Source: a virus
DNA length: 64,000 nucleotides
Direction: 5' to 3' (one strand)
Virus record (IMG/VR): IMGVR_UViG_3300020152_000022
Shown one piece after another: positions 2,617-59,142 of the stretch (the stretch's first letter is position 1; each line of letters starts with the position of its first letter). The notes beneath the pieces were generated by a model, which was not told the origin of the DNA, searched no databases, and saw nothing but the letters and a program-made list of their open reading frames with translations. The translations under genes and the position numbers were made by a program.

Positions 2617-4109
2617 ACTGGCATCACATCAGAAGGGTTCATTGCTTCGGGTTGCTTGGAGCCATTCGAGGTGTGCTGACGAACCTTGCTCATCATGCCA
2701 TCCAACTGGCGGGCACCCGCTTCCGTCGAGCCATTGCCGAGACCGGAGACCACATCTGCCGGGATGACGAACTCGCCTTCGGAGAGCGATGCCAAGCCCT
2801 GAGACCCGTCCTTGCCGGTGACGGTGGCAGGAACGCTGTCGCTCATGCCATCCCCCATCGGATCGGGCTGGCCTTCACCGGATTGGTGAATGGCGCTCAT
2901 CAGGTCGGCCAGTGCCGTATGACCGAAGGTCGACAGGAACATCGCCACAAGCTGCTGGGCATCGGGCGACTGTTCGATCAGGGCCTGCTTGGTGGCTTGG
3001 ATCAGGTCCTTGTCGCTCATCTCACCGGACGAATTGTCCAGAGAGGCAAGCCCGCCCTCGGCGTAACCCTTGACCAGTCCGCCCATGGCGAATTTGCGCT
3101 TGGTCGCCTTGCTGCCCTTGTACTTGTCGTCGGGGAAGTAGTCGTGCTCGCCGTCGCCGCCCGAACCCTTGAAGCTCACTTTGCCCCGGTGATAGGTGGT
3201 CTTCTTCAGCTTCGGCGCTTCCTGCTCTTCCATCTCCGGCATATCCGATCCACCCATCATGGCCGCCAAGGGGGCGAGACCCTGCATCATGGTCGACATA
3301 TTCGAGCCGGAGAAGATGCCCGAGGTGGTCGATGCCGGTGCCGGACCCAGTAGCGTCGCGCCGGGTGTCGTGGCATTGATGCCGGGAATGGTCGAGGGCG
3401 GTGTCACTGCCGGAGTAATCGATGCTGGTGCCGAAGAGACAACAGACGAAGGCGAGGCCAAGGTTGAAGGCGTCACCGCATTGGTGAGCGCCGCATCCAT
3501 GGCAGGCTTGAACAGAGGCGCGCTTGCCGGGTTGGCCGCGACAGAAGGCAGCGAGGTTGCCGTTGTTGCTGCCGGATTTGCCAGCATCGACGGGGTCGTA
3601 GCGGCGAGCGTGTCGAGACCGCCAGAACCGAGAAGCGTCGGCGTTGCTGCGCTGAGCGTGCTTGTCGCAGAAGGAAGTGCCGCCGTTGCTGCGGGAAGCG
3701 CCGAGGTCGCAGCCGCAGGGATTGCAGCGGTGGCAGCAGGCAGCGCACTGGCTGCGGTGGTCGCGCCAAGTGTCGCCGCCTGCGCCGCAGGAAGCGCAGC
3801 CGTCCCGAGCGCGCCCCCTATCGTGGCAGCAGCAGGAATTGCCGATGCTGCCGTGGTTGCTGCGGTGGCTGCCGCAGGCAATGCCGCTGCGGCGGTGGCT
3901 GCACCAGCGCCGATTGAGCCGAGACCCGCCAAGAACGGCAGGAAGAAGAAGGCTTCCGGAAGCCCGGTCTCCGGATTGGTGGGGAGCTTGCCCTTGGGAT
4001 GAAGGGATGCCAGACCTTCAAGCTCCGTATCGGACACATGGAGCAGGCGGTTGTCGCCATAACGTCCAGCCTTGGCTGCCTTCTCAAGGGTTTTCTTCAT
4101 GTCAAGCAC
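2613..4109 (-). CDS. Putative ejection/internal virion protein with Ala/Thr/Pro low-complexity region
   Basis: N-term GRYGD..L.HVS...NPETGLPEAF; C-term GDGMSDSVPA..LSEGEFVIPADVVSGLGNGS; FAMGG and YAEGG motifs. Confidence 0.7.
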   Translation of the reverse strand: MLDMKKTLEKAAKAGRYGDNRLLHVSDTELEGLASLHPKGKLPTNPETGLPEAFFFLPFLAGLGSIGAGAATAAAALPAAATAATTAASAIPAAATIGGALGTAALPAAQAATLGATTAASALPAATAAIPAAATSALPAATAALPSATSTLSAATPTLLGSGGLDTLAATTPSMLANPAATTATSLPSVAANPASAPLFKPAMDAALTNAVTPSTLASPSSVVSSAPASITPAVTPPSTIPGINATTPGATLLGPAPASTTSGIFSGSNMSTMMQGLAPLAAMMGGSDMPEMEEQEAPKLKKTTYHRGKVSFKGSGGDGEHDYFPDDKYKGSKATKRKFAMGGLVKGYAEGGLASLDNSSGEMSDKDLIQATKQALIEQSPDAQQLVAMFLSTFGHTALADLMSAIHQSGEGQPDPMGDGMSDSVPATVTGKDGSQGLASLSEGEFVIPADVVSGLGNGSTEAGARQLDGMMSKVRQHTSNGSKQPEAMNPSDVMPV

Positions 4110-24087: not shown

Positions 24088-24116
24088 AATGTACGTGTGG
24101 TTGACTTAACCGTCAA
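24088..24116 (-). promoter_or_regulatory. Sigma70-type promoter for terL-portal
   Basis: TTGACG-17 nt-TACATT; TTGAC-N6-GTCAA inverted repeat. Confidence 0.6.
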
Positions 24117-24339: not shown

Positions 24340-24585
24340 CTATCCCGTTATATGCTTGACCGCGCGATAGACTGCATCTTCCATGTGACGCAGGGAAAGT
24401 GTCAAGTTGGCGCTGCCCATGCGGTCGCCGGTCGGGTCGGTGCCGCCGATGGAATGCAGGAGATTGACGAAGTCCATCCCCAAATCCTTGACCATCTTCA
24501 TCTGCACCTTCTCGTCTTCGGTGAGCGTGCGATATTCATGGCGCATGACGTTATTCTTGGTGCGTTCGTCCGATGTGCTGTCCAC
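24340..24585 (-). CDS. Acb2/Tad1-hairpin-like putative nucleotide-signal sponge (anti-defence)
   Basis: RHEYRTLTEDEK.QMK.VKDLG and LTLSLRHMEDAVYRAVK resemble Acb2/T4 Vs.4 N- and C-terminal helices. Confidence 0.6.
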   Translation of the reverse strand: MDSTSDERTKNNVMRHEYRTLTEDEKVQMKMVKDLGMDFVNLLHSIGGTDPTGDRMGSANLTLSLRHMEDAVYRAVKHITG

Positions 24586-24586
24586 T

Positions 24587-24808
24587 TTAGTTCACCCTGA
24601 TCCCGTTGATCTTGTCTTGGTTGTTGTCGAGCCAGTCCTTCATTTCCCTCTCGAAACGCGGCTCGTGGTTGCGTCTGATCAGGCATGTCATCACGAAGGC
24701 CTTGGTCGCCGTCAGGCCTTCGTCGTCGCCCTCCTTGGGCTTGGGAGACGCGCAGCCCTCGGGGCCAACGCGGTAGAGGATGACGTCGTCAATTGGGATG
24801 GATTGCAT
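24587..24808 (-). CDS. Hypothetical protein
   Basis: Intact ORF with AAAGGG RBS. Confidence 0.5.
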   Translation of the reverse strand: MQSIPIDDVILYRVGPEGCASPKPKEGDDEGLTATKAFVMTCLIRRNHEPRFEREMKDWLDNNQDKINGIRVN

Positions 24809-25379
24809 TACCCTTTTCCTCTCGGAGGTATTTCAGCCATGCCATGTTCTTGGTCTGGTAGGGCATGGCATTCACAATGTCTTTTACCGCACGCCGCGAC
24901 AGCGTGAGGTAGCGTCGACGCTCCCTCCATTGCGGCTCGTTCACGGGGATACGCGCCGCTTGCCTGATGACCTCAAGCTTCTTGAGATCACCCAAAGTCA
25001 TCTTCGTCACCGCCATCGTCAAACCCGGTGGGGTGATCAAGTCCTGCCAATAGGACAAATTGTCCACAATCTTGCCCACGCGCTCAAGTTCGCGGAAGGT
25101 CTGGACCGGATGGGCCTTGCGCCCGAATGTCCGAATAAACCAGCGGAACGCCGCATAACGGATGGTGCCGCGCTTGTTATTGCAGAGTTCGCAAGCCGCC
25201 ACTGTGTTTGCCATCTCATCGCCACCCCCATGCGCGACAGGGGTGACGTGGTCGATGGTGCACATACGATCACTCGGACGTTCCCCCAGACGGGGGACAG
25301 CGAGTGTCATTCGGCATTCACAATAATGGCATTTGCCCTTCTGCGCCCAATAGAGAAATTCCCTACGGCTGTTGGCCAT
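24789..25379 (-). CDS. HNH endonuclease
   Basis: CHYC..TIDHVTP..HGG.D..AN.VAAC..CN..RG. Confidence 0.85.
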   Translation of the reverse strand: MANSRREFLYWAQKGKCHYCECRMTLAVPRLGERPSDRMCTIDHVTPVAHGGGDEMANTVAACELCNNKRGTIRYAAFRWFIRTFGRKAHPVQTFRELERVGKIVDNLSYWQDLITPPGLTMAVTKMTLGDLKKLEVIRQAARIPVNEPQWRERRRYLTLSRRAVKDIVNAMPYQTKNMAWLKYLREEKGNAIHPN

Positions 25380-25387
25380 GTTGCTCC

Positions 25388-25753
25388 TTATTCTTGTGCC
25401 GCTGCCATTGCCTCGTCGTGCTTGCGCTCCACGTCCTCGTCATCGTAGGTCTTGGCGGGGAAGTCGGAGAACTGCATGTTGGCGCGACGGTCAGCCTCGG
25501 CAGCGTTATGAAGCATCTCGCGCATGGATGTGGGCTCAGGCATTTCTGCCGGAGCCAGTTCTGTCTGGGGTATGCCAGAGCCGAGGGTGGAGAGCGAGCG
25601 CTTGAGCGCGAGGATCACGCGGGTCGCATCTTCGATCTGGAGCGCCACTTCGCGCTCGACGTCGAGAAGTTTGATGTAGCGGGCTTCTTCCTTTTTCAGG
25701 TTTTCGGTCAGAATATCGTAGACCTCTTTGGTGTGCTTATAGGCCGTCGTCAT
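25388..25753 (-). CDS. Hypothetical coiled-coil protein
   Basis: Intact ORF, ATGA-coupled to upstream HTH gene. Confidence 0.55.
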   Translation of the reverse strand: MTTAYKHTKEVYDILTENLKKEEARYIKLLDVEREVALQIEDATRVILALKRSLSTLGSGIPQTELAPAEMPEPTSMREMLHNAAEADRRANMQFSDFPAKTYDDEDVERKHDEAMAAAQE

Positions 25754-25968
25754 GTTCGCTTCCTTTCGCTTCGAATACCCCACCGGTTCAACCAGTGGTA
25801 CACTTTAAGTTTAGACCATCGGGATCGCCCGACAGTCGTATGCCGTTTCGGGAACTTGCCTTGATACGTCAGGGTAAGAATATACCGTGGCGTCAGACCG
25901 ACGATCTTGGAGACTTCCTCAATCGTCAGCAGCGTTGCCTTTTTCTGGCGAGGGACCTTGAACGACAT
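25750..25968 (-). CDS. AlpA/excisionase-like helix-turn-helix protein
   Basis: LLTIEEVSKIVGLT..YI..L...GKFPK....GRS.W...V..W. Confidence 0.75.
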   Translation of the reverse strand: MSFKVPRQKKATLLTIEEVSKIVGLTPRYILTLTYQGKFPKRHTTVGRSRWSKLKVYHWLNRWGIRSERKRT

Positions 25969-26218
25969 GCTCGATCCTACGATAGCCGCTGCGGATCATC
26001 AAGAGATCGAGCCTTGCATCCGCTGTCTTCCAAGGCTTCCTGTTGATCGCGACCGCGAGCACCTCCTTGACGCCAAGGTTATAACCGAGCCGGTGCACGG
26101 GCGCGACCTCATCGCGCACCGTGCTCCATTTCTTGCGCCTTGTGGTGATGAAGCGAATTTTGCCACTCGGCAGATGCTCGATCTTCATGATGTGCAGCCA
26201 TTTCTTGCGTGGGGTCAT
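25919..26218 (-). CDS. RKxW-family small protein (three motifs)
   Basis: RKKW, RKKW, RKPW. Confidence 0.7.
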   Translation of the reverse strand: MTPRKKWLHIMKIEHLPSGKIRFITTRRKKWSTVRDEVAPVHRLGYNLGVKEVLAVAINRKPWKTADARLDLLMIRSGYRRIEHVVQGPSPEKGNAADD

Positions 26219-26436
26219 CTGTAACCCCTGAGATTATAGGTCCGGATGCGCGCCACCTTGCTCTTCCAGAATTTCCGGTGGAGATAAAGCCAGAACTGCT
26301 GGCTATGCTCGTATCTACCCACGCGATGGACAGGCTGGACCTCTCCCGTGCGCGACCATGGTTTGCGCGGCATCTGCCCCTCTGCGGGATGGCGAAGACT
26401 GATCATGATCCACGCTACCATTCTGTTGCCATCCAT
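26215..26436 (-). CDS. RKxW-family small protein (start uncertain)
   Basis: RKPW...RKFW. Confidence 0.65.
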   Translation of the reverse strand: MDGNRMVAWIMISLRHPAEGQMPRKPWSRTGEVQPVHRVGRYEHSQQFWLYLHRKFWKSKVARIRTYNLRGYR

Positions 26437-26627
26437 GGCTTGCGGCGCGGGGTCATGTAGCGGCTTATCCACTTCCCCGGCTTGATGGGATGAGCCCAGC
26501 ACTGACGAAGGCAGCCAATCCTGCGGGTCCGCCATGGCTTGCGCGCCTCGTGGTATTCCCCATTCTCCCACCTTACAAACCAGAGGTAGTAATAGGCTTG
26601 ATAAGCCTTCAATGTCTTGGGCTTCAT
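26415..26627 (-). CDS. RKxW-family small protein
   Basis: MKPKT...RKPW...RKPW. Confidence 0.7.
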   Translation of the reverse strand: MKPKTLKAYQAYYYLWFVRWENGEYHEARKPWRTRRIGCLRQCWAHPIKPGKWISRYMTPRRKPWMATEW

Positions 26628-26857
26628 CGCGCTCGTCTCCCGATTGCCCACATCCTGAGCCGGATGGATTGGGAACGATTTGCCGACCACGCCTTGCGCC
26701 GGGTGACATAGCGGTCCTGATCATGGCCGTAGAGTATCCATGCATTGGTGCCGAAGAAGTTGTTCCGTGGCATCGGGGTCTGCCAGCCAGTATTGCTGGT
26801 GCGCCATCTCTTGCGCTCTCGGAACAGGATGAAATAAGCGGCAGCATCCTTTGGCAT
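26624..26857 (-). CDS. RKxW-family small protein
   Basis: RKRW...FFGTNAW...RKAW. Confidence 0.75.
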   Translation of the reverse strand: MPKDAAAYFILFRERKRWRTSNTGWQTPMPRNNFFGTNAWILYGHDQDRYVTRRKAWSANRSQSIRLRMWAIGRRAR

Positions 26858-27069
26858 CACACGTTCCTTGCCCATCTTGCGGCTCTCCTTGCCGAGTTCC
26901 ATCCCTTGCGCATGATCAGGCATTCCGGAAAGGAAACCGCATTGTTGCGAACCCAGAGGTTGGTGCCATAGACCGATGGGCGGCGATAAAAGCCGATGCC
27001 ATTCGAACCCACCGTCACCCATCGCCAGACGCGCTTCCATTCCTTACGATCGTCCATGGTACTCATCAT
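26857..27069 (-). CDS. RKxW-family small protein (start uncertain)
   Basis: RKEW...VYGTNLW...RKGW. Confidence 0.7.
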   Translation of the reverse strand: MMSTMDDRKEWKRVWRWVTVGSNGIGFYRRPSVYGTNLWVRNNAVSFPECLIMRKGWNSARRAARWARNV

Positions 27070-27274
27070 CCTTGAGATCAAGCCAGTGCAGGTTCCATGG
27101 CTTGCGTCTTTCCAAGAGGTTATGGGTCGCCGCTTCGGCACGACTGCCCATAGTCTCGCGTATCCACCAGAGCGAGCCGAAGGGCGCAATATCACGATGG
27201 AAGCACAGCACGGTCGGCAGGCGTAAAATTGGCTCACGCTTCCAGAACTTGCGTTGATAGACATGCTCAACCAT
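27044..27274 (-). CDS. RKxW-family small protein
   Basis: RKFW...APFGSLWW...RKPW. Confidence 0.75.
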   Translation of the reverse strand: MVEHVYQRKFWKREPILRLPTVLCFHRDIAPFGSLWWIRETMGSRAEAATHNLLERRKPWNLHWLDLKDDEYHGRS

Positions 27275-27482
27275 TCAAGCGGCTCCATCTCCAGCCAACG
27301 TTCCAGCGCTTGCGTTTGAACAGGACATTCGCTGACGGCCAGTTGCCATCCCTGATCCAGCCATAGCTGCCGAACATCGCGGGACTGGGCCTCTTTTTAA
27401 AGAGCGTGTGCCGTGGCCTGTTCTGCCATGGCTTGCGGTCAAAGACCGTTTCCCACCTCTCCGTGATGCACCACAGGCTCAT
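27267..27482 (-). CDS. RKxW-family small protein
   Basis: RKPW...MFGSYGW...RKRW. Confidence 0.75.
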   Translation of the reverse strand: MSLWCITERWETVFDRKPWQNRPRHTLFKKRPSPAMFGSYGWIRDGNWPSANVLFKRKRWNVGWRWSRLNG

Positions 27483-27715
27483 AGCTTCTTCCTCTTTCCT
27501 ATTCGGCGAATACGGGACACATGCCCCCATTCCTTGCGGAGATCGAGCAAGAGCCACCAACCCTGAGGCGCTGACGTTTTGATCTCGGCCAGCGTCCCGA
27601 AGGTTATCGGTTTGATCGTCGGGTGCATGTAAGTAAAGACCTCCCGATGCCATGGCTTTCTGAAAGTAAAATGCGATCCGCCAGCAATAGAACGGACAAC
27701 TGGACAGTTGCTCAT
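27479..27715 (-). CDS. RKxW-family small protein
   Basis: RKPW...ITFGT...RKEW. Confidence 0.75.
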   Translation of the reverse strand: MSNCPVVRSIAGGSHFTFRKPWHREVFTYMHPTIKPITFGTLAEIKTSAPQGWWLLLDLRKEWGHVSRIRRIGKRKKL

Positions 27716-27927
27716 ATCCAAACCCTCTTCCAGCGCCAATCGCGGTTCCACGGCTTGCGGCTATGGATGAAATCGTTGGCGTTGACTAGGGCCATGACTG
27801 AATGTCGGCGCGTCCGTATCCAGTAGCTGCCGAAGTCCGATATCGCGCCATATCTGGGATTGCCGCGCTTCCAGCGCTTACGCCCCCAAATCAGATTGTC
27901 ATTGGCTGCCCAGAAGGTGATACCCAT
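27712..27927 (-). CDS. RKxW-family small protein
   Basis: RKRW...DFGSYW...RKPW. Confidence 0.75.
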   Translation of the reverse strand: MGITFWAANDNLIWGRKRWKRGNPRYGAISDFGSYWIRTRRHSVMALVNANDFIHSRKPWNRDWRWKRVWI

Positions 27928-28184
27928 CAGTTGCTCCACCTGTCTGTTTCTCTTTCATTTCGGCTCACGGTAGCCCAGTGTTTGCGGTCGTGCATGAAGG
28001 CATCGAACTCAACGAAGGTGTGCCCGCCATCGAACTCCGTCTCGATCCACCAATAGGAGCCGAACATCACGCCACCCTTCCAGCCGGAGCCGCGCACCTT
28101 CATGCGGATATGGAGCCTGTTCTTTCTGCTCCGCCATATCTTGCGCAGCCTGAACATGGTGAAATAGCTTTCGAACTCATCCAC
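27927..28184 (-). CDS. RKxW-family small protein
   Basis: RKIW...MFGSYWW...RKHW. Confidence 0.75.
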   Translation of the reverse strand: MDEFESYFTMFRLRKIWRSRKNRLHIRMKVRGSGWKGGVMFGSYWWIETEFDGGHTFVEFDAFMHDRKHWATVSRNERETDRWSN

Positions 28185-28386
28185 GGCTCAGCCTCCCGAC
28201 CCAGTAGGGTATCGCCCATTTCTTCCGGAAGTTCACCGGGAAGGGATCGAGGCCAAGCCCATTTATCCAGCCATGCATACCGAAGGGCGCGTTCGGGGTT
28301 GTGGTTACGTAGGCACCAAACATGCGGTCATGCCGTCGCCATTCCTTGCGCCCTACCCAGAGATTTGCGTAGAGAAAATTACTCAT
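28177..28386 (-). CDS. RKxW-family small protein
   Basis: RKEW...APFGMHGW...RKKW. Confidence 0.75.
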   Translation of the reverse strand: MSNFLYANLWVGRKEWRRHDRMFGAYVTTTPNAPFGMHGWINGLGLDPFPVNFRKKWAIPYWVGRLSRG

Positions 28387-28616
28387 GGCGCTCCCCTTTC
28401 ATAGCGCTCTACTCTTCTCGCCCTGCCCCATATCTTGCGCAGCCAAAGAAAAGGCCCGGTAAGGTGTAGGCCTTCATCGATGACCCAAGAATAGGTGCCG
28501 AAGGGTGTAGGGCGCGCGGATGGATACCAGTCAAGACCGCCGATCCTGTTGCGGTGAAACTTCCGCAGCGCCCAGAGGGTCATGTAGTCATCCTGCCAAG
28601 GCGTGGTCTTAACCAT
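28383..28616 (-). CDS. RKxW-family small protein
   Basis: RKFH...PTPFGTYSW...RKIW. Confidence 0.75.
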   Translation of the reverse strand: MVKTTPWQDDYMTLWALRKFHRNRIGGLDWYPSARPTPFGTYSWVIDEGLHLTGPFLWLRKIWGRARRVERYERGAP

Positions 28617-28833
28617 CGTCGTATTCCATTCTGGTCATCCATTTATGGTGGTGGTAATCAACCGCCCAATCCTTGCGCTCCTGCCATTCCCTGAAGGTGA
28701 CTTTATCGTTGGTGGCATAGAGAAGGTGCCCGAAGGTCACGGGGCGGACAGAGCCGGTCCAGTTGGGATAGCCACCCCGACTGCGGAAGGACTTACGATA
28801 GGCCCAGAGATACGGCATGTACTCACCCGTCAT
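28609..28833 (-). CDS. RKxW-family small protein
   Basis: RKSF...VTFGH...RKDW. Confidence 0.75.
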   Translation of the reverse strand: MTGEYMPYLWAYRKSFRSRGGYPNWTGSVRPVTFGHLLYATNDKVTFREWQERKDWAVDYHHHKWMTRMEYDDG

Positions 28834-29050
28834 TGTTCAAATTTTTCCAGAGGCCCACCCGCCAGTCATAGTTCCACGTCTTGCGGTCATTGAGAAAGCC
28901 ACCGGTATAGCCCACCTCAAGGTTCCTGATCCAAGCATAGGTGCCGAAGGGAACGCGCATGGTGGAGCCCGGCCCTATCACGAGAAGGCCTCTGCGCCTG
29001 CGCCAATCCTTGCGGGTCTTGGTGTGGAGGGTCCAGCTAAACATCGTCAT
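28823..29050 (-). CDS. RKxW-family small protein
   Basis: RKDW...PFGTYAW...RKTW. Confidence 0.75.
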   Translation of the reverse strand: MTMFSWTLHTKTRKDWRRRRGLLVIGPGSTMRVPFGTYAWIRNLEVGYTGGFLNDRKTWNYDWRVGLWKNLNNDG

Positions 29051-29279
29051 CCAATCTCTTCATGTGCCGCATTACTCGGCTGCCATAATTCCAGTCCTTC
29101 CGCTCTTCGAGGAATGGCCCGGTATAGGGGAGGTCGAGGTTCATGACCCAAGCATAGGTGCCGAAAGGTGCTGGGTTGGGCGATTTCCAGACCTCATCTA
29201 GTGGATAGACCTCCCACTCCTTGCGGTCGAAAGAGCTGATCGTTTCATCATCGTTGGTGCTGAAAAAAACAGTGCTCAT
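29037..29279 (-). CDS. RKxW-family small protein
   Basis: RKEW...PAPFGTYAW...RKDW. Confidence 0.75.
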   Translation of the reverse strand: MSTVFFSTNDDETISSFDRKEWEVYPLDEVWKSPNPAPFGTYAWVMNLDLPYTGPFLEERKDWNYGSRVMRHMKRLDDDV

Positions 29280-29518
29280 TTCTTCCGCACCTCCGACCAT
29301 TTCCTGCCATAATATTCTGCGGCCCATGGCTTGCGCTCGATCAGGGGAGCAGGCCAATAGAGGGCGTCGATCAGGCTCTCCCCATAAAAGCCGAAGGGCA
29401 CGGGCGTGATGTTGGTGGTGTGACGCCATAAGCTGTTACCGTTCACGCTTCGCTGCCGCCATACCTTCCTTGGGTGCCAGTAGAAATCATGAGGCGGTTT
29501 AAAAATTGAATAGGTCAT
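29276..29518 (-). CDS. RKxW-family small protein
   Basis: RKVW...PVPFGFY...RKPW. Confidence 0.75.
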   Translation of the reverse strand: MTYSIFKPPHDFYWHPRKVWRQRSVNGNSLWRHTTNITPVPFGFYGESLIDALYWPAPLIERKPWAAEYYGRKWSEVRKK

Positions 29519-29791
29519 TTCTTGCTCGCCCAGTATAATTCAGTATCCCTCTCGCGCCGCCGTTTAACGGCCCAGTATTTCCGGTCAGAAAGCAGGCCCC
29601 CGGTCGCACTGAGGGACAAGCTGATCGGCGGCTCGTTTGCCTTCTCCTGCACGTTCACCCACCAATATGTCCCGAAGGGACCCCGATTTTTTTCGAGCCT
29701 GTCGGGTCCGGTAATAATACGACAGGTCTGAAGCCAGCCTGCGTCGCCACCGCTTGCGGGACGTGAACAGTGGATATGCATCTCCATTCAT
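29515..29791 (-). pseudogene. RKxW-family member split by a frameshift at an A7 tract
   Basis: RKRW in the frame starting at 29791; PFGTYWW...RKYW in another frame; removing one A at 29687-29693 joins them. Confidence 0.7.
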
Positions 29792-30042
29792 CTGGCATCC
29801 CTCCGCCATGTTCCCTTCGGGCTCCAGCCGAGCGCACACCGCTTGCGATAGATCATCCAAAGGGGCCGGGGCTGCTTGTCCGCCTCTTGGTCCGCGAGGC
29901 AACGGGCAAAATGTCCGAAGGGCTTTGGGTTCGGGGGCCATGGGGTAGAGACGTGCTCAGGGACACGATAGGACGGCGGGTAAAACGACCATCTTTTCCT
30001 CACGACCATGCACTGTATGTATCCTCCGGACATGCTAGGCAT
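29788..30042 (-). CDS. RKxW-family small protein (start uncertain)
   Basis: RKRW...PKPFGH...RKRC. Confidence 0.7.
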   Translation of the reverse strand: MPSMSGGYIQCMVVRKRWSFYPPSYRVPEHVSTPWPPNPKPFGHFARCLADQEADKQPRPLWMIYRKRCALGWSPKGTWRRDAR

Positions 30043-30274
30043 TGTATCGCTTCCATCTGATGTACCTGTCATGGGCACGATCCAGCGCCCATGTCTTTCT
30101 CTGGTGGTTGGGGCTATAGATGAATGCGCCATGCTGCGAGTTCGCATAGAGATGCGTGCCGAACATCCGTGGGGTCGGGTTGCCGTTAGGGAAGTAGTGG
30201 ACTTTCCATGCCCTCGTCTTGTGCCAGCGCTCCCGCCATGGTTTGCGCATATGGTAAAAGCTGCTCCAGTTCAT
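30035..30274 (-). CDS. RKxW-family small protein
   Basis: RKPW...MFGTHLY...RKTW. Confidence 0.75.
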   Translation of the reverse strand: MNWSSFYHMRKPWRERWHKTRAWKVHYFPNGNPTPRMFGTHLYANSQHGAFIYSPNHQRKTWALDRAHDRYIRWKRYNA

Positions 30275-30525
30275 GGCTCTTCCTCCTGACTATCGGCCCA
30301 GCGCCAGTAGCGACGCACCACACGATCAGAGGCCCATTCCTTGCGCTTGGTGAGTACATCCCAGCCATCTTCGGTGGTGGTGACATAGAGCAGGGAGCCG
30401 AAGGGGTCGGGCCGGAAACGCGGTTCACTGCCACGCCACAGGATATAGGTCGAGCCGTTGAAGGTGCGGAGCCGCCATTCCTTGCGGTCGCTCCAATAGA
30501 GATCACTGTCCGCATAGTCCATCAT
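30271..30525 (-). CDS. RKxW-family small protein
   Basis: RKEW...PDPFGSLLY...RKEW. Confidence 0.75.
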   Translation of the reverse strand: MMDYADSDLYWSDRKEWRLRTFNGSTYILWRGSEPRFRPDPFGSLLYVTTTEDGWDVLTKRKEWASDRVVRRYWRWADSQEEEP

Positions 30526-30791
30526 GGCTGGCTGTCGCTCCATTTGGCGTATCGCTTATCGACCGCAGGTCTTGACCAAGTCTTGCGATATACCCGTTGG
30601 TTATGGATGAACACGAACTGGTCCGAGGTCGCAAAATAATGCGAGCCGAACGCGGTGAGGCCGGGGAACTCAATCTCTTGGGCGACGTAGCCACGAGAGT
30701 GGCTTGACGAGAAGCACCGTATTCGCCAGACCTTGCGTACCGCATAGAGGCCGACATAGGCATGGACATGCCGCAGGAGGGGGTCTTTCAT
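30522..30791 (-). CDS. RKxW-family small protein
   Basis: RKVW...AFGSHY...RKTW. Confidence 0.75.
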   Translation of the reverse strand: MKDPLLRHVHAYVGLYAVRKVWRIRCFSSSHSRGYVAQEIEFPGLTAFGSHYFATSDQFVFIHNQRVYRKTWSRPAVDKRYAKWSDSQP

Positions 30792-31042
30792 CTGGCCCTC
30801 CGCGCCATTTTGCGATGATGGTAAACCCAAGCCCAGTTCTTGCGCTGCCATTTCGGGCCTCTGGTGTAGGAATATTGATCAAACAGATACGCATAGGAGC
30901 CAAACGGTTTCAGGCCGGGAAACTCCTTGACCATGGCGATATAGGCCCGGTCGGCGAGGTCGTTGAAGCGCCGCCTGCGCCATGGCTTCCGCTTAGTGTA
31001 AAGCTCGACATAGTAATGGACTGTCCTGTGCCCCATGCTCAT
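30788..31042 (-). CDS. RKxW-family small protein
   Basis: RKPWRRRRF...PFGSYAY...RKNW. Confidence 0.75.
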   Translation of the reverse strand: MSMGHRTVHYYVELYTKRKPWRRRRFNDLADRAYIAMVKEFPGLKPFGSYAYLFDQYSYTRGPKWQRKNWAWVYHHRKMARRAR

Positions 31043-31278
31043 CGCAGTCCTCGCAGTTCTTTCATGATCTTGTTATGGTATTCCCAAGCCCACAATGCCT
31101 TGCGGCTGCTCTTCGGCCCCTCGCTATAGACCTCATGGTCGGTATGGTAGGCATGCGAGCCGAAGGGGGTCGGGGTTCTCGTGACCATGCGGTCGGACAC
31201 ATAAGGGCCACCACTGAAACGGCGGCGTCGCCATGGCTTGCGGTAGAAGAACAGTTCATAAGTCTGCATTGATATCAT
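31039..31278 (-). CDS. RKxW-family small protein
   Basis: RKPWRRRRF...PTPFGSHAY...RKALW. Confidence 0.75.
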   Translation of the reverse strand: MISMQTYELFFYRKPWRRRRFSGGPYVSDRMVTRTPTPFGSHAYHTDHEVYSEGPKSSRKALWAWEYHNKIMKELRGLR

Positions 31279-31502
31279 CGGTACTGCCTCCGGTGGGTAC
31301 GCGCCCGATGGTATTCAAAGGCCCAATCCTTGCGGTGGAGGGATATCGTGGAATTCCAAGGGAGAAGGATTGCCTGATAATGATAGGAGCCGAATGGGGC
31401 GACCTTATCGACCGTGATCGCGCGCTCCAGCACGTAGTAATATCCAAGACGGCGTCGCCACCGCTTGCGGGAGTAGAGCAGGTTGTAGGTCTCTTGCCAC
31501 AT
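31275..31502 (-). CDS. RKxW-family small protein (first of left array)
   Basis: RKRW...APFGSYHY...RKDW. Confidence 0.75.
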   Translation of the reverse strand: MWQETYNLLYSRKRWRRRLGYYYVLERAITVDKVAPFGSYHYQAILLPWNSTISLHRKDWAFEYHRARTHRRQYR

Positions 31503-31504
31503 GG

Positions 31505-31687
31505 CTACTTCCCCGGTCGGCCAAGCGGGCGGATTTCGATATCGTCCGCAACTTCCCTCGGCAGCCATCCCATCATGACCGCATATTCAGTCAAGGCCTC
31601 GCGCGCCAAACGCGACAGCTTGCCATGCTTGCCGGAGTAAACCTCCGCCAGTTCATCGGGGATCATAAAGGATATCTTGACTGCCAT
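31505..31687 (-). CDS. Ribbon-helix-helix DNA-binding protein
   Basis: MAVKISFMIPDELAE...KLSRLAREAL.EY; GGAG RBS. Confidence 0.7.
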   Translation of the reverse strand: MAVKISFMIPDELAEVYSGKHGKLSRLAREALTEYAVMMGWLPREVADDIEIRPLGRPGK

Positions 31688-31734: not shown

Positions 31735-32082
31735 TCAACGGCCAGATTGTCCATTGCCGCGAACATAGTCCAAGAGTACGCGCGAGATGCGTCCCTGCCA
31801 GCCGGGGCCATCCTTCTTGAAATGCTCAACCACCTCATCGGGGAAGCGGATCGAGATCGGAGGCTTCCGCTTGATCTTGCGCCGCTGCTCATTCCGGACA
31901 TAGCGCTTAGGCAGGTACATGCCCCCGAGCGCTTCCAGTTCTTCCTCCGGCGTCGGGTCATAGCAGATCGCACCGGGCGGGATATTTTCGCACGGCTTCT
32001 TCTGGAAGGAGCTAAAACCGCACCAGTAGTCGCGCTGACACTGGGCGCAAGGCTCGGCTAACTTATAGGAGAGAACAGGCAT
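31735..32082 (-). CDS. BrnA-antitoxin-like (DUF4415) C-terminal domain protein
   Basis: K.PISIRFPDEVVEHFKKDGPGWQGRISRVL; Cys-rich N-terminus. Confidence 0.7.
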   Translation of the reverse strand: MPVLSYKLAEPCAQCQRDYWCGFSSFQKKPCENIPPGAICYDPTPEEELEALGGMYLPKRYVRNEQRRKIKRKPPISIRFPDEVVEHFKKDGPGWQGRISRVLLDYVRGNGQSGR

Positions 32083-32084
32083 GA

Positions 32085-32925
32085 TGGTAGCTACCTTTAG
32101 CGCTATTTGGGCTGTTAACGGGCTATGGTAGCTACGTTAACAAAACGCTTGTAGCTACGTCAAGCGAGCGGATTTTTTGGCGCAGAAAATTTTTGGGCTG
32201 CGCAATTTTTTGATGCCAGAGAGAAAGCGCTCGGAGAGGTGGGCGGGGTGCGAGATGGGGGTCGGGGATTTTTTTTGGGGGGGCGTTTGAGCATCATTGT
32301 ATGTAGCGCGTGCAGGTGCCCGCCCGCATGCGCGGGGGTGGGGGTGGGTGGGTAAGCCCGTACGCCCCCGCAGGCGCGAGGGGTAGGTACTTCAAGCACT
32401 TAGCTATAGCTACGCAGTGTCAGCACAGCGCCGTCACTTGCACTGAGAACGCAACGATATCAATGCGATAGCCACTGCCTTGCGCACGCGAGAGCATGCG
32501 ATGCGTGAGGTGTGCGCGTGATGTGAGGTCACAGATTGCTATGCAATCCACCCCATCTAATCCCTCTAATCCCCCACTATCCCATCACTATAGCGTAGCT
32601 ATTGCCCAGCCCACTGCCCATCCCATAGCTATGCTATGCCCCATCCAACCCAAGGCAGCTATGCTGTCCGACTGGCACTGCACCAACCCAGCCCACTGCC
32701 ATCCGTCCTATCATAACCCAATAGGTTATGTGCTCAGCCCATTGGTCTATGGCATCAACACTATGGCTAACGTAGTTAGGACGGGCTCTTGTCTATGGTG
32801 ACAGCGAAGCTGGATGGCTCGGCTTCTCGCCTTCCTCTTCCTCAATGCATAGCATTGCATCATCGTCAGGACTGCGATGCCAATGATGCCACCGCTATCC
32901 CTCCGGGATGGATGCCAGATGATAG
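32085..32925. other. Non-coding candidate packaging/terminus region with TAGCTA palindromes and G-tracts
   Basis: GTAGCTAC at 32087, 32128, 32151; further TAGCTA copies at 32401, 32407, 32596, 32626; long G runs then C-rich segment; next to terS. Confidence 0.5.
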
Positions 32926-59067: not shown

Positions 59068-59142
59068 TGGTCCGTAGCTCAATGGTAGAGCACCTGACTG
59101 TTAATCAGGTTGTTGCTGGTTCGAGCCCAGCCGGATCAGCCA
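59068..59142 (+). tRNA. trnN: tRNA-Asn (GTT), encoded CCA
   Basis: Full cloverleaf: TGGTCCG/CGGATCA acceptor, GCTC/GAGC D-arm, CCTGA-CTGTTAA-TCAGG anticodon arm, GCTGG-TTCGAGC-CCAGC T-arm, G73, CCA. Confidence 0.95.

Follow-up and report, generated by a model that had tools for sequence, protein, structure and literature searches.

A diverged tandem family of RKxW small-protein genes in a tailed phage genome and its possible role in counter-defence

The window analysed here, the whole 64,000-nucleotide (nt) stretch of viral DNA from the IMG/VR record IMGVR_UViG_3300020152_000022, belongs to a phage contig of 69,982 bp rather than to a cellular genome and contains a minus-strand run of genes for small proteins with two Arg-Lys-x-Trp (RKxW) motifs. 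The run, at 31502-25919, is tiled by 24 genes (m01-m24, Table 1) without intergenic DNA. Analysis of the open reading frames (ORFs) of the window thus places the 24-member array where the initial annotation had put it, the count being valid only if the overlapping ORFs 29585-29791 and 29515-29787 are taken as one frameshifted member, m08. The encoded proteins are about 69-99 amino acids (aa) long, typically ~75 aa. At 14 of the 23 array junctions the neighbouring genes overlap by 4 nt in an ATGA; the remainder overlap by 8 to 26 nt or are separated by 1 nt, and the junction between m01 and the 60-aa gene in front of it is +2 nt. The RK-to-RK spacing ranges from 30 to 53 aa, somewhat wider than the 33-45 aa claimed at first, and the likenesses then noted between members, namely between m10 and m11, between m02 and m03, and in the RKDWA..YH tail of m12 and m01, are real. 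A six-frame search for [RK]KxW yields 46 minus-strand matches at 26-32 kb and 0-2 per 2 kb elsewhere, except for a second cluster on the plus strand at 36-44 kb.

These proteins constitute a real, selected, rare and hitherto unannotated family. In its consensus, an aromatic N-terminus leads into RKxW(RRR) and a variable linker; PFG[ST]Y.W comes next, and then another variable stretch, the second RKxW and a basic tail. In the alignment of 23 members the columns R12, K13, G38, R57, K58 and W60 are invariant, and the mean identity is only 23%. The members are rich in Trp (6.6%) and Arg (12.6%), with an isoelectric point (pI) of at least 10 in 20 of the 24; m05 and m10 are acidic. The array ORFs are genes rather than chance ORFs, since the GC content at third codon positions is 0.70 in the array vs 0.74 in large genes, the conserved motifs are encoded by several synonymous codons (Arg also by CGG, CGT, AGG and AGA; Lys also by AAA), and the pooled ratio of non-synonymous to synonymous divergence (dN/dS) between the array and its orthologues in a soil contig, L043, is 0.38.

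We also observed a codon bias at the motif itself. Of the 47 motifs, 33 encode the Arg of RKxW with CGC, as compared with 46% CGC in large genes and ~27% at other Arg positions of the array; the Lys is AAG in 41 of the 47, which is near the genome norm. The CGC excess could be due to codon choice at conserved sites or to a DNA-level constraint.

The profile search of 1.84 billion protein representatives (E <= 1e-3) returned 65 matches, comprising about 23 of the window's own, 4 unrelated repeat proteins and ~40 small proteins with the family signature. The family recurs in at least six independent metagenome lineages, and in every context retrieved its members are in tandem. Three contigs (L001-L003) are near-identical relatives of the window, 96.6-99.6% identical overall with long stretches at 100%. 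The soil contig L043 carries at least 11 members before the contig end, and in L041, 18 members lie between a BrnA-like gene and an HTH_17 gene. In L260, whose large terminase gene (terL) is 84% identical to that of the window, the order is a gene resembling the small terminase gene (terS-like), BrnA, 11 members, HNH, terL, portal and GroES. L261 and L262 (terL 88% identical) hold 13 members (counted for L262), HNH, an Acb2/Tad1 gene and terL. Four short contigs (L040, L042, L045 and L046) contain 2-5 members each. The L260 array is interrupted by a 151-aa gene (3459-3914) without the family signature.

Other searches were blank. The isolated phages of INPHARED gave no match, either at the DNA level or with tblastn, and no member was present in 36 IMG/VR and 62 metagenome loci picked via terL (26-73% identity). 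A scan of IMG/VR and GTDB genomes for the DNA pattern of RKxW..FG..RKxW produced 30 viral and 120 genome loci, all of them chance matches according to the family hidden Markov model (HMM), and a three-orthologue profile found nothing in metagenome contigs. Ten members had no Pfam or PHROG match at E < 0.25, the 81 family members scanned singly yielded no recurrent Pfam family, and the family profile had 0 matches among PDB sequences. As the family is currently invisible to annotation, it merits a profile in phage protein databases.

The structure of m11 was modelled with AlphaFold2 from an 81-sequence alignment, which was used because the alignment of the 23 paralogues gave a poor model (predicted local distance difference test, pLDDT, 62). 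The model is of medium confidence (pLDDT 77.7; predicted template modelling score, pTM, 0.50) and has predicted helices at 3-13, 36-42, 47-56 and 58-73, where helix 1 ends with the first RKxW, the FG opens helix 2, and helices 3 and 4 are separated by the second RKxW. Fold searches with this model gave 0 matches for Foldseek against PDB, E > 3 in BFVD, E > 5 in AFDB, Z <= 3.0 with VIA-align and TM <= 0.36 in Atlas; these blank results do not prove that the fold is new. The N- and C-terminal halves of the protein share only a short motif match, 13 columns around RKxW (hhalign probability 76%), and hence we rejected an internal duplication of the protein.

The array changes through gain of duplicates, loss of members and replacement of cassettes, and it does so much faster than the backbone of the phage. 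Identity between members declines with their distance in the array (Spearman -0.29), adjacent pairs being 29.0% identical vs 24.5% overall (permutation p 2e-4 for both). In the tree of 53 members from the window, L043 (prefix c) and L041 (prefix b), eight members (m02, m05, m06, m07, m08, m09, m13 and m14) have collinear one-to-one orthologues in L043, and there is partial collinearity with L041 (m15-b07, m17-b12, m21-b16, m23-b17 and m24-b18). The tree also contains lineage-specific clades, formed by m03/m04, by m10/m11/c09 and by b01-b04 with b13, and it reveals losses, as c05/b05 lack a window orthologue and m12 lacks one in L043. The L043 member c09 is a hybrid with an m10-like N-terminus and an m11-like tail, and is thus a footprint of unequal crossing-over between neighbours. 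The copy number is 24 in the window, 18 in L041, 13 in L262 and 11 in L260; with the latter two arrays, reciprocal best matches are weak and not collinear, despite terL being 84-88% identical.

The growth by tandem duplication and divergence proposed in the initial annotation is thus borne out by the correlation of similarity with position, the m03/m04 and m10/m11 clades, the hybrid c09 and a copy number that varies from 11 to 24 among relatives. Its description of the array as accordion-like does not hold. The closest pair, m02/m03, has 44% aa identity, m10 and m11 have 40% and also share the best DNA repeat of the array (74% over 85 nt), so that there are no near-identical copies. Nor does the copy number change among L001-L003, in which gene content and order agree over the array parts covered, the differences being allele replacements and one indel. 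The decay of identity with distance, the lineage-specific duplicates and losses and the variable copy number are features of birth-and-death evolution, and the data speak for an old family of this type that also exchanges cassettes, and against a fast accordion.

The cassette exchange is seen most directly among the near-identical relatives. L002 is 100% identical to the window over more than 5 kb, but the identity falls to 54-76% across m15 (past the first motif), m16 and m17. The L002 allele of m16 has 54-57% nt identity inside an otherwise identical genome, and that of m17 has 15.2 differences at 53 synonymous sites and 23.8 at 181 non-synonymous sites. Solely across m22-m23, it is the window that is unlike L001, L002 and L003. 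No paralogous donor for the divergent blocks was found inside the genome; hence intragenomic gene conversion was rejected as their source, and the blocks were either imported from other phages or are old maintained alleles. Compared with L043, the array has a pooled synonymous divergence (dS) of 1.13 and 35-62% aa identity, as opposed to a dS of 0.17 for the adjacent 60-aa gene. Thus, the histories of the cassettes are much deeper than those of their flanks.

We also considered RKxW as the site of recombination breakpoints. In three of the four block edges a motif is at most some tens of nt away, but with one motif per ~117 nt we estimate that this proximity is not beyond chance.

The array unit starts with a BrnA-like gene, followed by the 60-aa gene and m01, and the initial annotation had read the two leading genes as regulators of the ribbon-helix-helix (RHH) type. 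The first belongs to the BrnA_antitoxin family with a score above the cut-off, whereas the second, labelled 'RHH2' in Table 1, has no Pfam match even at E 10. It is, nevertheless, far better conserved than the array (88% aa identity to the L043 counterpart). The notion of a coupled unit behind a regulator agrees both with the tight junctions and with the position of the BrnA-like gene directly behind three palindromes, GTAGCTAC. The 64 kb contain exactly three such copies, confined to a 72-bp segment 5' of the BrnA-like gene. L041 has the same triplet in front of its BrnA-like gene, and this recurrence in DNA that is just 67% identical supports an operator role. Degenerate copies, GTANCTAC, precede the BrnA-like gene of L260, and L043, in which another gene takes the place of the BrnA-like one, lacks the triplet. 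Judging from these sequence patterns, the triplet is likely the operator set of the RHH protein. Transcription as one operon, as first proposed, and control by the RHH protein are plausible. BrnA-like genes head the arrays of L041 and L260 too. Scans of neighbours and members detected no BrnT-like toxin family, and Pfam and PHROG scans of the neighbours revealed no toxin gene in the array neighbourhood; the BrnA-like gene is best read as a recruited repressor.

Table 1. Array members and flanking features of the window
Feature	Coordinates	Strand	Description
terS-like gene	33544-32930	-	Terminase_2 E 1.2e-3, below Pfam cut-off; phrog_51 2.9e-9
Three GTAGCTAC palindromes	32087..32158	-	around a TTGACG promoter-like hexamer, directly 5' of the BrnA-like gene; putative operator/promoter
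RHH1, BrnA_antitoxin family	31735..32082	-	115 aa; PF14384 E 1.6e-11, above cut-off; phrog_4692 7.9e-11
'RHH2'	31505..31687	-	60 aa; RHH-like by eye only
m01	31275..31502	-	75 aa; family HMM E 1.7e-18
m02	31039..31278	-	79 aa; ATGA-coupled; L043 orthologue c02
m03	30788..31042	-	84 aa; sister of m04; 44% identical to m02
m04	30522..30791	-	89 aa; sister of m03
m05	30271..30525	-	84 aa; acidic, pI 5.1; L043 orthologue c03 (support 100/97)
m06	30035..30274	-	79 aa; L043 orthologue c04
m07	29788..30033	-	81 aa; second motif RKRC; L043 orthologue c06
m08	29515..29791	-	frameshifted in the window, two overlapping ORFs
m09	29276..29518	-	80 aa; L043 orthologue c08
m10	29037..29279	-	80 aa; acidic, pI 4.5; paralogue of m11, clade with m11 and c09
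m11	28823..29050	-	75 aa; query of the structure model
m12	28609..28833	-	74 aa; first motif RKSF; without L043 counterpart
m13	28383..28616	-	77 aa; L043 orthologue c10
m14	28177..28386	-	69 aa; L043 orthologue c11 (support 100/99)
m15	27927..28184	-	85 aa; GTG start; L041 orthologue b07; replaced in L002 past the first RKxW
m16	27712..27939	-	71-75 aa; very divergent allele in L002
m17	27479..27715	-	78 aa; divergent allele in L002; L041 orthologue b12
m18	27267..27482	-	71 aa
m19	27044..27274	-	76 aa
m20	26857..27069	-	66-70 aa
m21	26624..26860	-	78-83 aa; L041 orthologue b16
m22	26415..26627	-	70 aa; divergent type without PFG; window allele unlike L001, L002, L003
m23	26215..26436	-	68-73 aa; divergent type; window-specific allele; L041 orthologue b17
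m24	25919..26218	-	99 aa; most divergent, last member; HMM E 5.5e-8; groups with b18 (last in L041)
HTH_17 (excisionase/MerR-type)	25750..25968	-	72 aa; overlaps the end of m24; Pfam E 1.5e-5, just below cut-off; phrog_66 2.6e-6
HNH endonuclease	24789..25379	-	Pfam HNH E 5e-8
Acb2/Tad1 hairpin-domain protein (cyclic-nucleotide sponge family)	24340..24585	-	81 aa; PF24729 E 4.9e-9, 36.7 bits vs cut-off 27

Upstream, a gene-free stretch of ~850 bp separates the array unit from the terS-like gene. Past the array the gene order is HTH_17, a 131-aa gene, HNH, a 73-aa gene, Acb2/Tad1, a 65-aa gene, a promoter-like site at 24116 and terL. Of the earlier placement of the array between terS and terL, the terL gene is clear (54% identity to an annotated terL), while the match of the terS-like gene is weak and six more genes lie between the array and terL. 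The HTH_17 gene follows the array in L041 as well, the HNH gene is kept downstream of the arrays in L003, L260 and L261, and an Acb2/Tad1-family gene is situated between HNH and terL in two lineages, those of the window and of L261 (4830-5087). In L260 the terS-like gene, BrnA, array, HNH and terL follow one another in the same order. Phage DSL-LC04, whose terL is 54% identical, has ~4.8 kb with 7 hypothetical genes between terS and terL, and hence the interval seems to be a cargo site in this group.

Two further observations concern the region upstream of the array. The non-coding segment 32270-32426 is 90.5% identical to L043, the adjoining coding DNA being 70-80% identical or unalignable; it has no Rfam match and could be a regulatory or packaging element. 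Homing-endonuclease genes of the HNH_3 (and NUMOD4) type head the array region in L043 (248-700) and L262 (1219-1623), and in L043 the endonuclease occupies the place of the BrnA-like gene.

The second cluster of motif matches corresponds to another set of RKxW genes, located on the plus strand of the right arm at 36662-39331, 40933-41600 and 42462-43716. The segment 40933-41600 holds two clear family members; the other right-arm genes form a longer, weakly matching subfamily (HMM E 5e-4 to 0.5). These genes are interleaved with genes for J-domain, MoxR AAA+ and VWA/metallopeptidase-like proteins, and relatives of the family are ATGA-coupled to the J-domain gene. In total, the RKxW family has 24 + roughly 15 members, which is near 14% of the ~70-kb phage genome.

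Small accessory genes flanked by RHH and helix-turn-helix (HTH) regulators form a layout like that of anti-defence operons. By analogy, the members may be stand-alone binders that together make up a counter-defence battery against variable host defence or exclusion factors; this is the reading we would put first, although we hold it tentatively. It is suggested by the Acb2/Tad1-like neighbour, which is present in the same leftward gene string in both the window and L261, by the regulator-flanked layout and by an evolutionary pattern like that of tandem immunity-gene arrays. The evolution itself is of the birth-and-death kind, with unequal crossing-over among neighbours, members lost, and single cassettes replaced by very divergent alleles, probably via recombination between phages. 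In the binder reading, the invariant Arg/Lys and Trp would bind a chemical feature shared by the ligands, most probably phosphate and base in nucleotides or nucleic acids, or else a conserved surface of a polymorphic host protein, and the variable loops and tails would set the specificity on a fixed RKxW-FG-RKxW scaffold. The array would then act as a poly-immunity-like locus, where alternative inhibitors or decoys are co-expressed under RHH control. More doubtful is the further step that the family is a new class of combinatorially diversified binder library, in which a fixed helical scaffold would hold its ligand, a nucleotide, a nucleic acid or a polymorphic host immune protein, with two Arg-Lys-x-Trp clamps, and specificity cassettes would be swapped between co-circulating phages; if true, the virus would in effect have its own version of a variable immune-receptor repertoire, directed against the defences of bacteria.

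Several points weigh against a counter-defence role. No member matches a known anti-defence, immunity or nucleic-acid-binding family or fold, and hence the function is read only from context and evolutionary pattern. The strong sequence conservation of the two RKxW and the FG could equally reflect one common, non-polymorphic partner. That related genes are interleaved with those for J-domain, MoxR and VWA proteins suggests that the family may instead act in the phage's own programme. The dN/dS value indicates relaxed purifying selection, not demonstrated positive selection, and the structure model is, as mentioned above, only of medium confidence.

Among the alternatives, the one that survives best, while still unlikely, is that the members serve the phage's own nucleic-acid handling, either as small DNA or RNA binders that would be packaged or injected along with the genome to condense, coat or shield it, or as sequence-specific regulators, the paralogues being sub-functionalised. 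The proteins are indeed extremely basic and aromatic, a short motif is repeated within each of them (the hhalign match of the two halves), members are present on both genome arms, and the array lies in the packaging region, by the terS-like gene, HNH and terL. However, housekeeping binders are usually single-copy and conserved, whereas here the alleles are hypervariable between otherwise 100% identical regions, the copy number ranges from 11 to 24, and two members are acidic. Moreover, phages with terL <= 73% identical carry none of these genes, so that the family is dispensable for this virion type.

It is improbable that the members belong to one machine, being clients, adaptors or alternative subunits that act with each other or with the J-domain, MoxR AAA+ and VWA proteins. 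The coupling and interleaving of the right-arm relatives with that module would fit, tight translational coupling is typical of complex subunits, and a complex-subunit alternative has been named for paralogue arrays (PMC3113570). Yet the left array is 5-10 kb from the J-domain/MoxR/VWA module and on the opposite strand, and the number and identity of members vary widely between related phages, unlike those of fixed stoichiometric subunits; the same variation argument was used against the subunit alternative for the SUKH arrays (PMC3113570).

We regard as distinctly improbable a selfish small-gene family that spreads via recombination at a conserved DNA motif or via homing endonucleases, with little benefit for the phage. 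Such a family would account for members at several separate sites between conserved genes, for the HNH or HNH_3/NUMOD4 genes that flank the arrays in the window, L043 and L262, and possibly for the CGC excess at the motif Arg, and a homing endonuclease is reported to drive the amplification of phage loci (PMC13096335). On the other hand, the pooled dN/dS and the residues invariant over deep divergence indicate selection on the proteins, collinear orthologues are kept between lineages, there are neither recent copies nor repeat termini, and the edges of replaced blocks are near RKxW no more often than expected. The possibility that the array is an artefact, either of ORFs that arose by chance or of a non-coding repeat with a DNA element mistaken for a protein motif, is negligible, for although the word CGCAAG..TGG recurs and the motif Arg codon is biased, the motif is also written with CGG, CGT, AGG, AGA and AAA, the ORFs tile without gaps in changing frames, the GC content at codon positions is gene-like, and the protein HMM reaches diverged homologues whose DNA no longer aligns.

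Poxvirus ankyrin and K3L accordions and the multigene families of African swine fever virus are terminal or accessory paralogue arrays, in which birth-and-death evolution is tied to host range. The RKxW array differs from them in virus realm and in folds. To our knowledge, families of diverged paralogues, a hallmark of arms races in big eukaryotic viruses, are rare and of unusual scale in ~70-kb tailed phages. The fast change of the array is as expected of genes in a phage-host arms race.

For the SUKH immunity genes, diverged paralogues in tandem whose number and identity vary between genomes, Zhang, Iyer and Aravind (2011) inferred alternative versions under selection for diversity (PMC3113570). 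The phage array resembles these poly-immunity arrays in having many adjacent, strongly diverged small paralogues of varying number. Unlike them, it has no linked toxin gene, has no sequence or fold relation to SUKH or other immunity (Imm) families, is carried on a lytic-type backbone, and comprises 24 members in one run vs up to 6 (PMC3113570).

As for phage accordions, the T4 counter-defence locus tifA is amplified (PMC9391042), TifA being a small RNA-binding protein (PMC10853763), and SegB drives the amplification of phage loci (PMC13096335). The T4/T6 accordions and the array have in common tandemly multiplied small accessory genes with endonuclease genes nearby, but the T4/T6 copies are recent, near-identical and unstable (PMC9391042, PMC13096335), whereas here we observe divergence (<= 44% identity) and cassette replacement.

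The layout of the array unit, where small accessory genes have an RHH gene in front, an HTH gene behind and putative operator sites, is similar to that of acr-aca operons, and the bona fide Acb2/Tad1-family gene in the same gene string likens it to Acb2/Tad1 sponge loci. However, none of the known anti-defence families, be it Acr, Acb, Tad or another, is matched by an array member, and the known acr-aca loci consist of a few unrelated genes rather than 24 paralogues. With the BrnT/BrnA systems the unit shares the RHH family (BrnA_antitoxin) of its leading gene; the difference is that no BrnT-like toxin was detected and that the RHH gene heads a 24-gene array.

Thus, a phage lineage spends a large share of its genome on one unannotated small-protein family, with hypervariable cassettes and two-fold differences in copy number between close lineages. 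If the members are binders for counter-defence or host takeover, they would offer dozens of natural variants on one scaffold, suitable for mapping specificity and for finding bacterial targets.

The broken member m08 is intact in two of the near-identical contigs, encoding 92 aa in L001 and 91 aa in L002. The window, L001 and L002 differ in m08 only at CCGGAC[-/GA/C]CCGAC near 29705, so that there are three lengths at the 29700-29710 site in three otherwise identical genomes (+2 nt in L001 and -1 nt in L002, relative to the window). An A7 run was rejected as the cause of the frameshift, or as a phase switch, since it is unchanged in the intact genes of L001 and L002. Given three lengths at one site and a constant A7 run, m08 of the window has either become a pseudogene or been misassembled at an indel hot spot. 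Outside the array region, a tRNA-Asn (GTT) gene at 59068-59142 is the only Rfam/ARAGORN match in the window.

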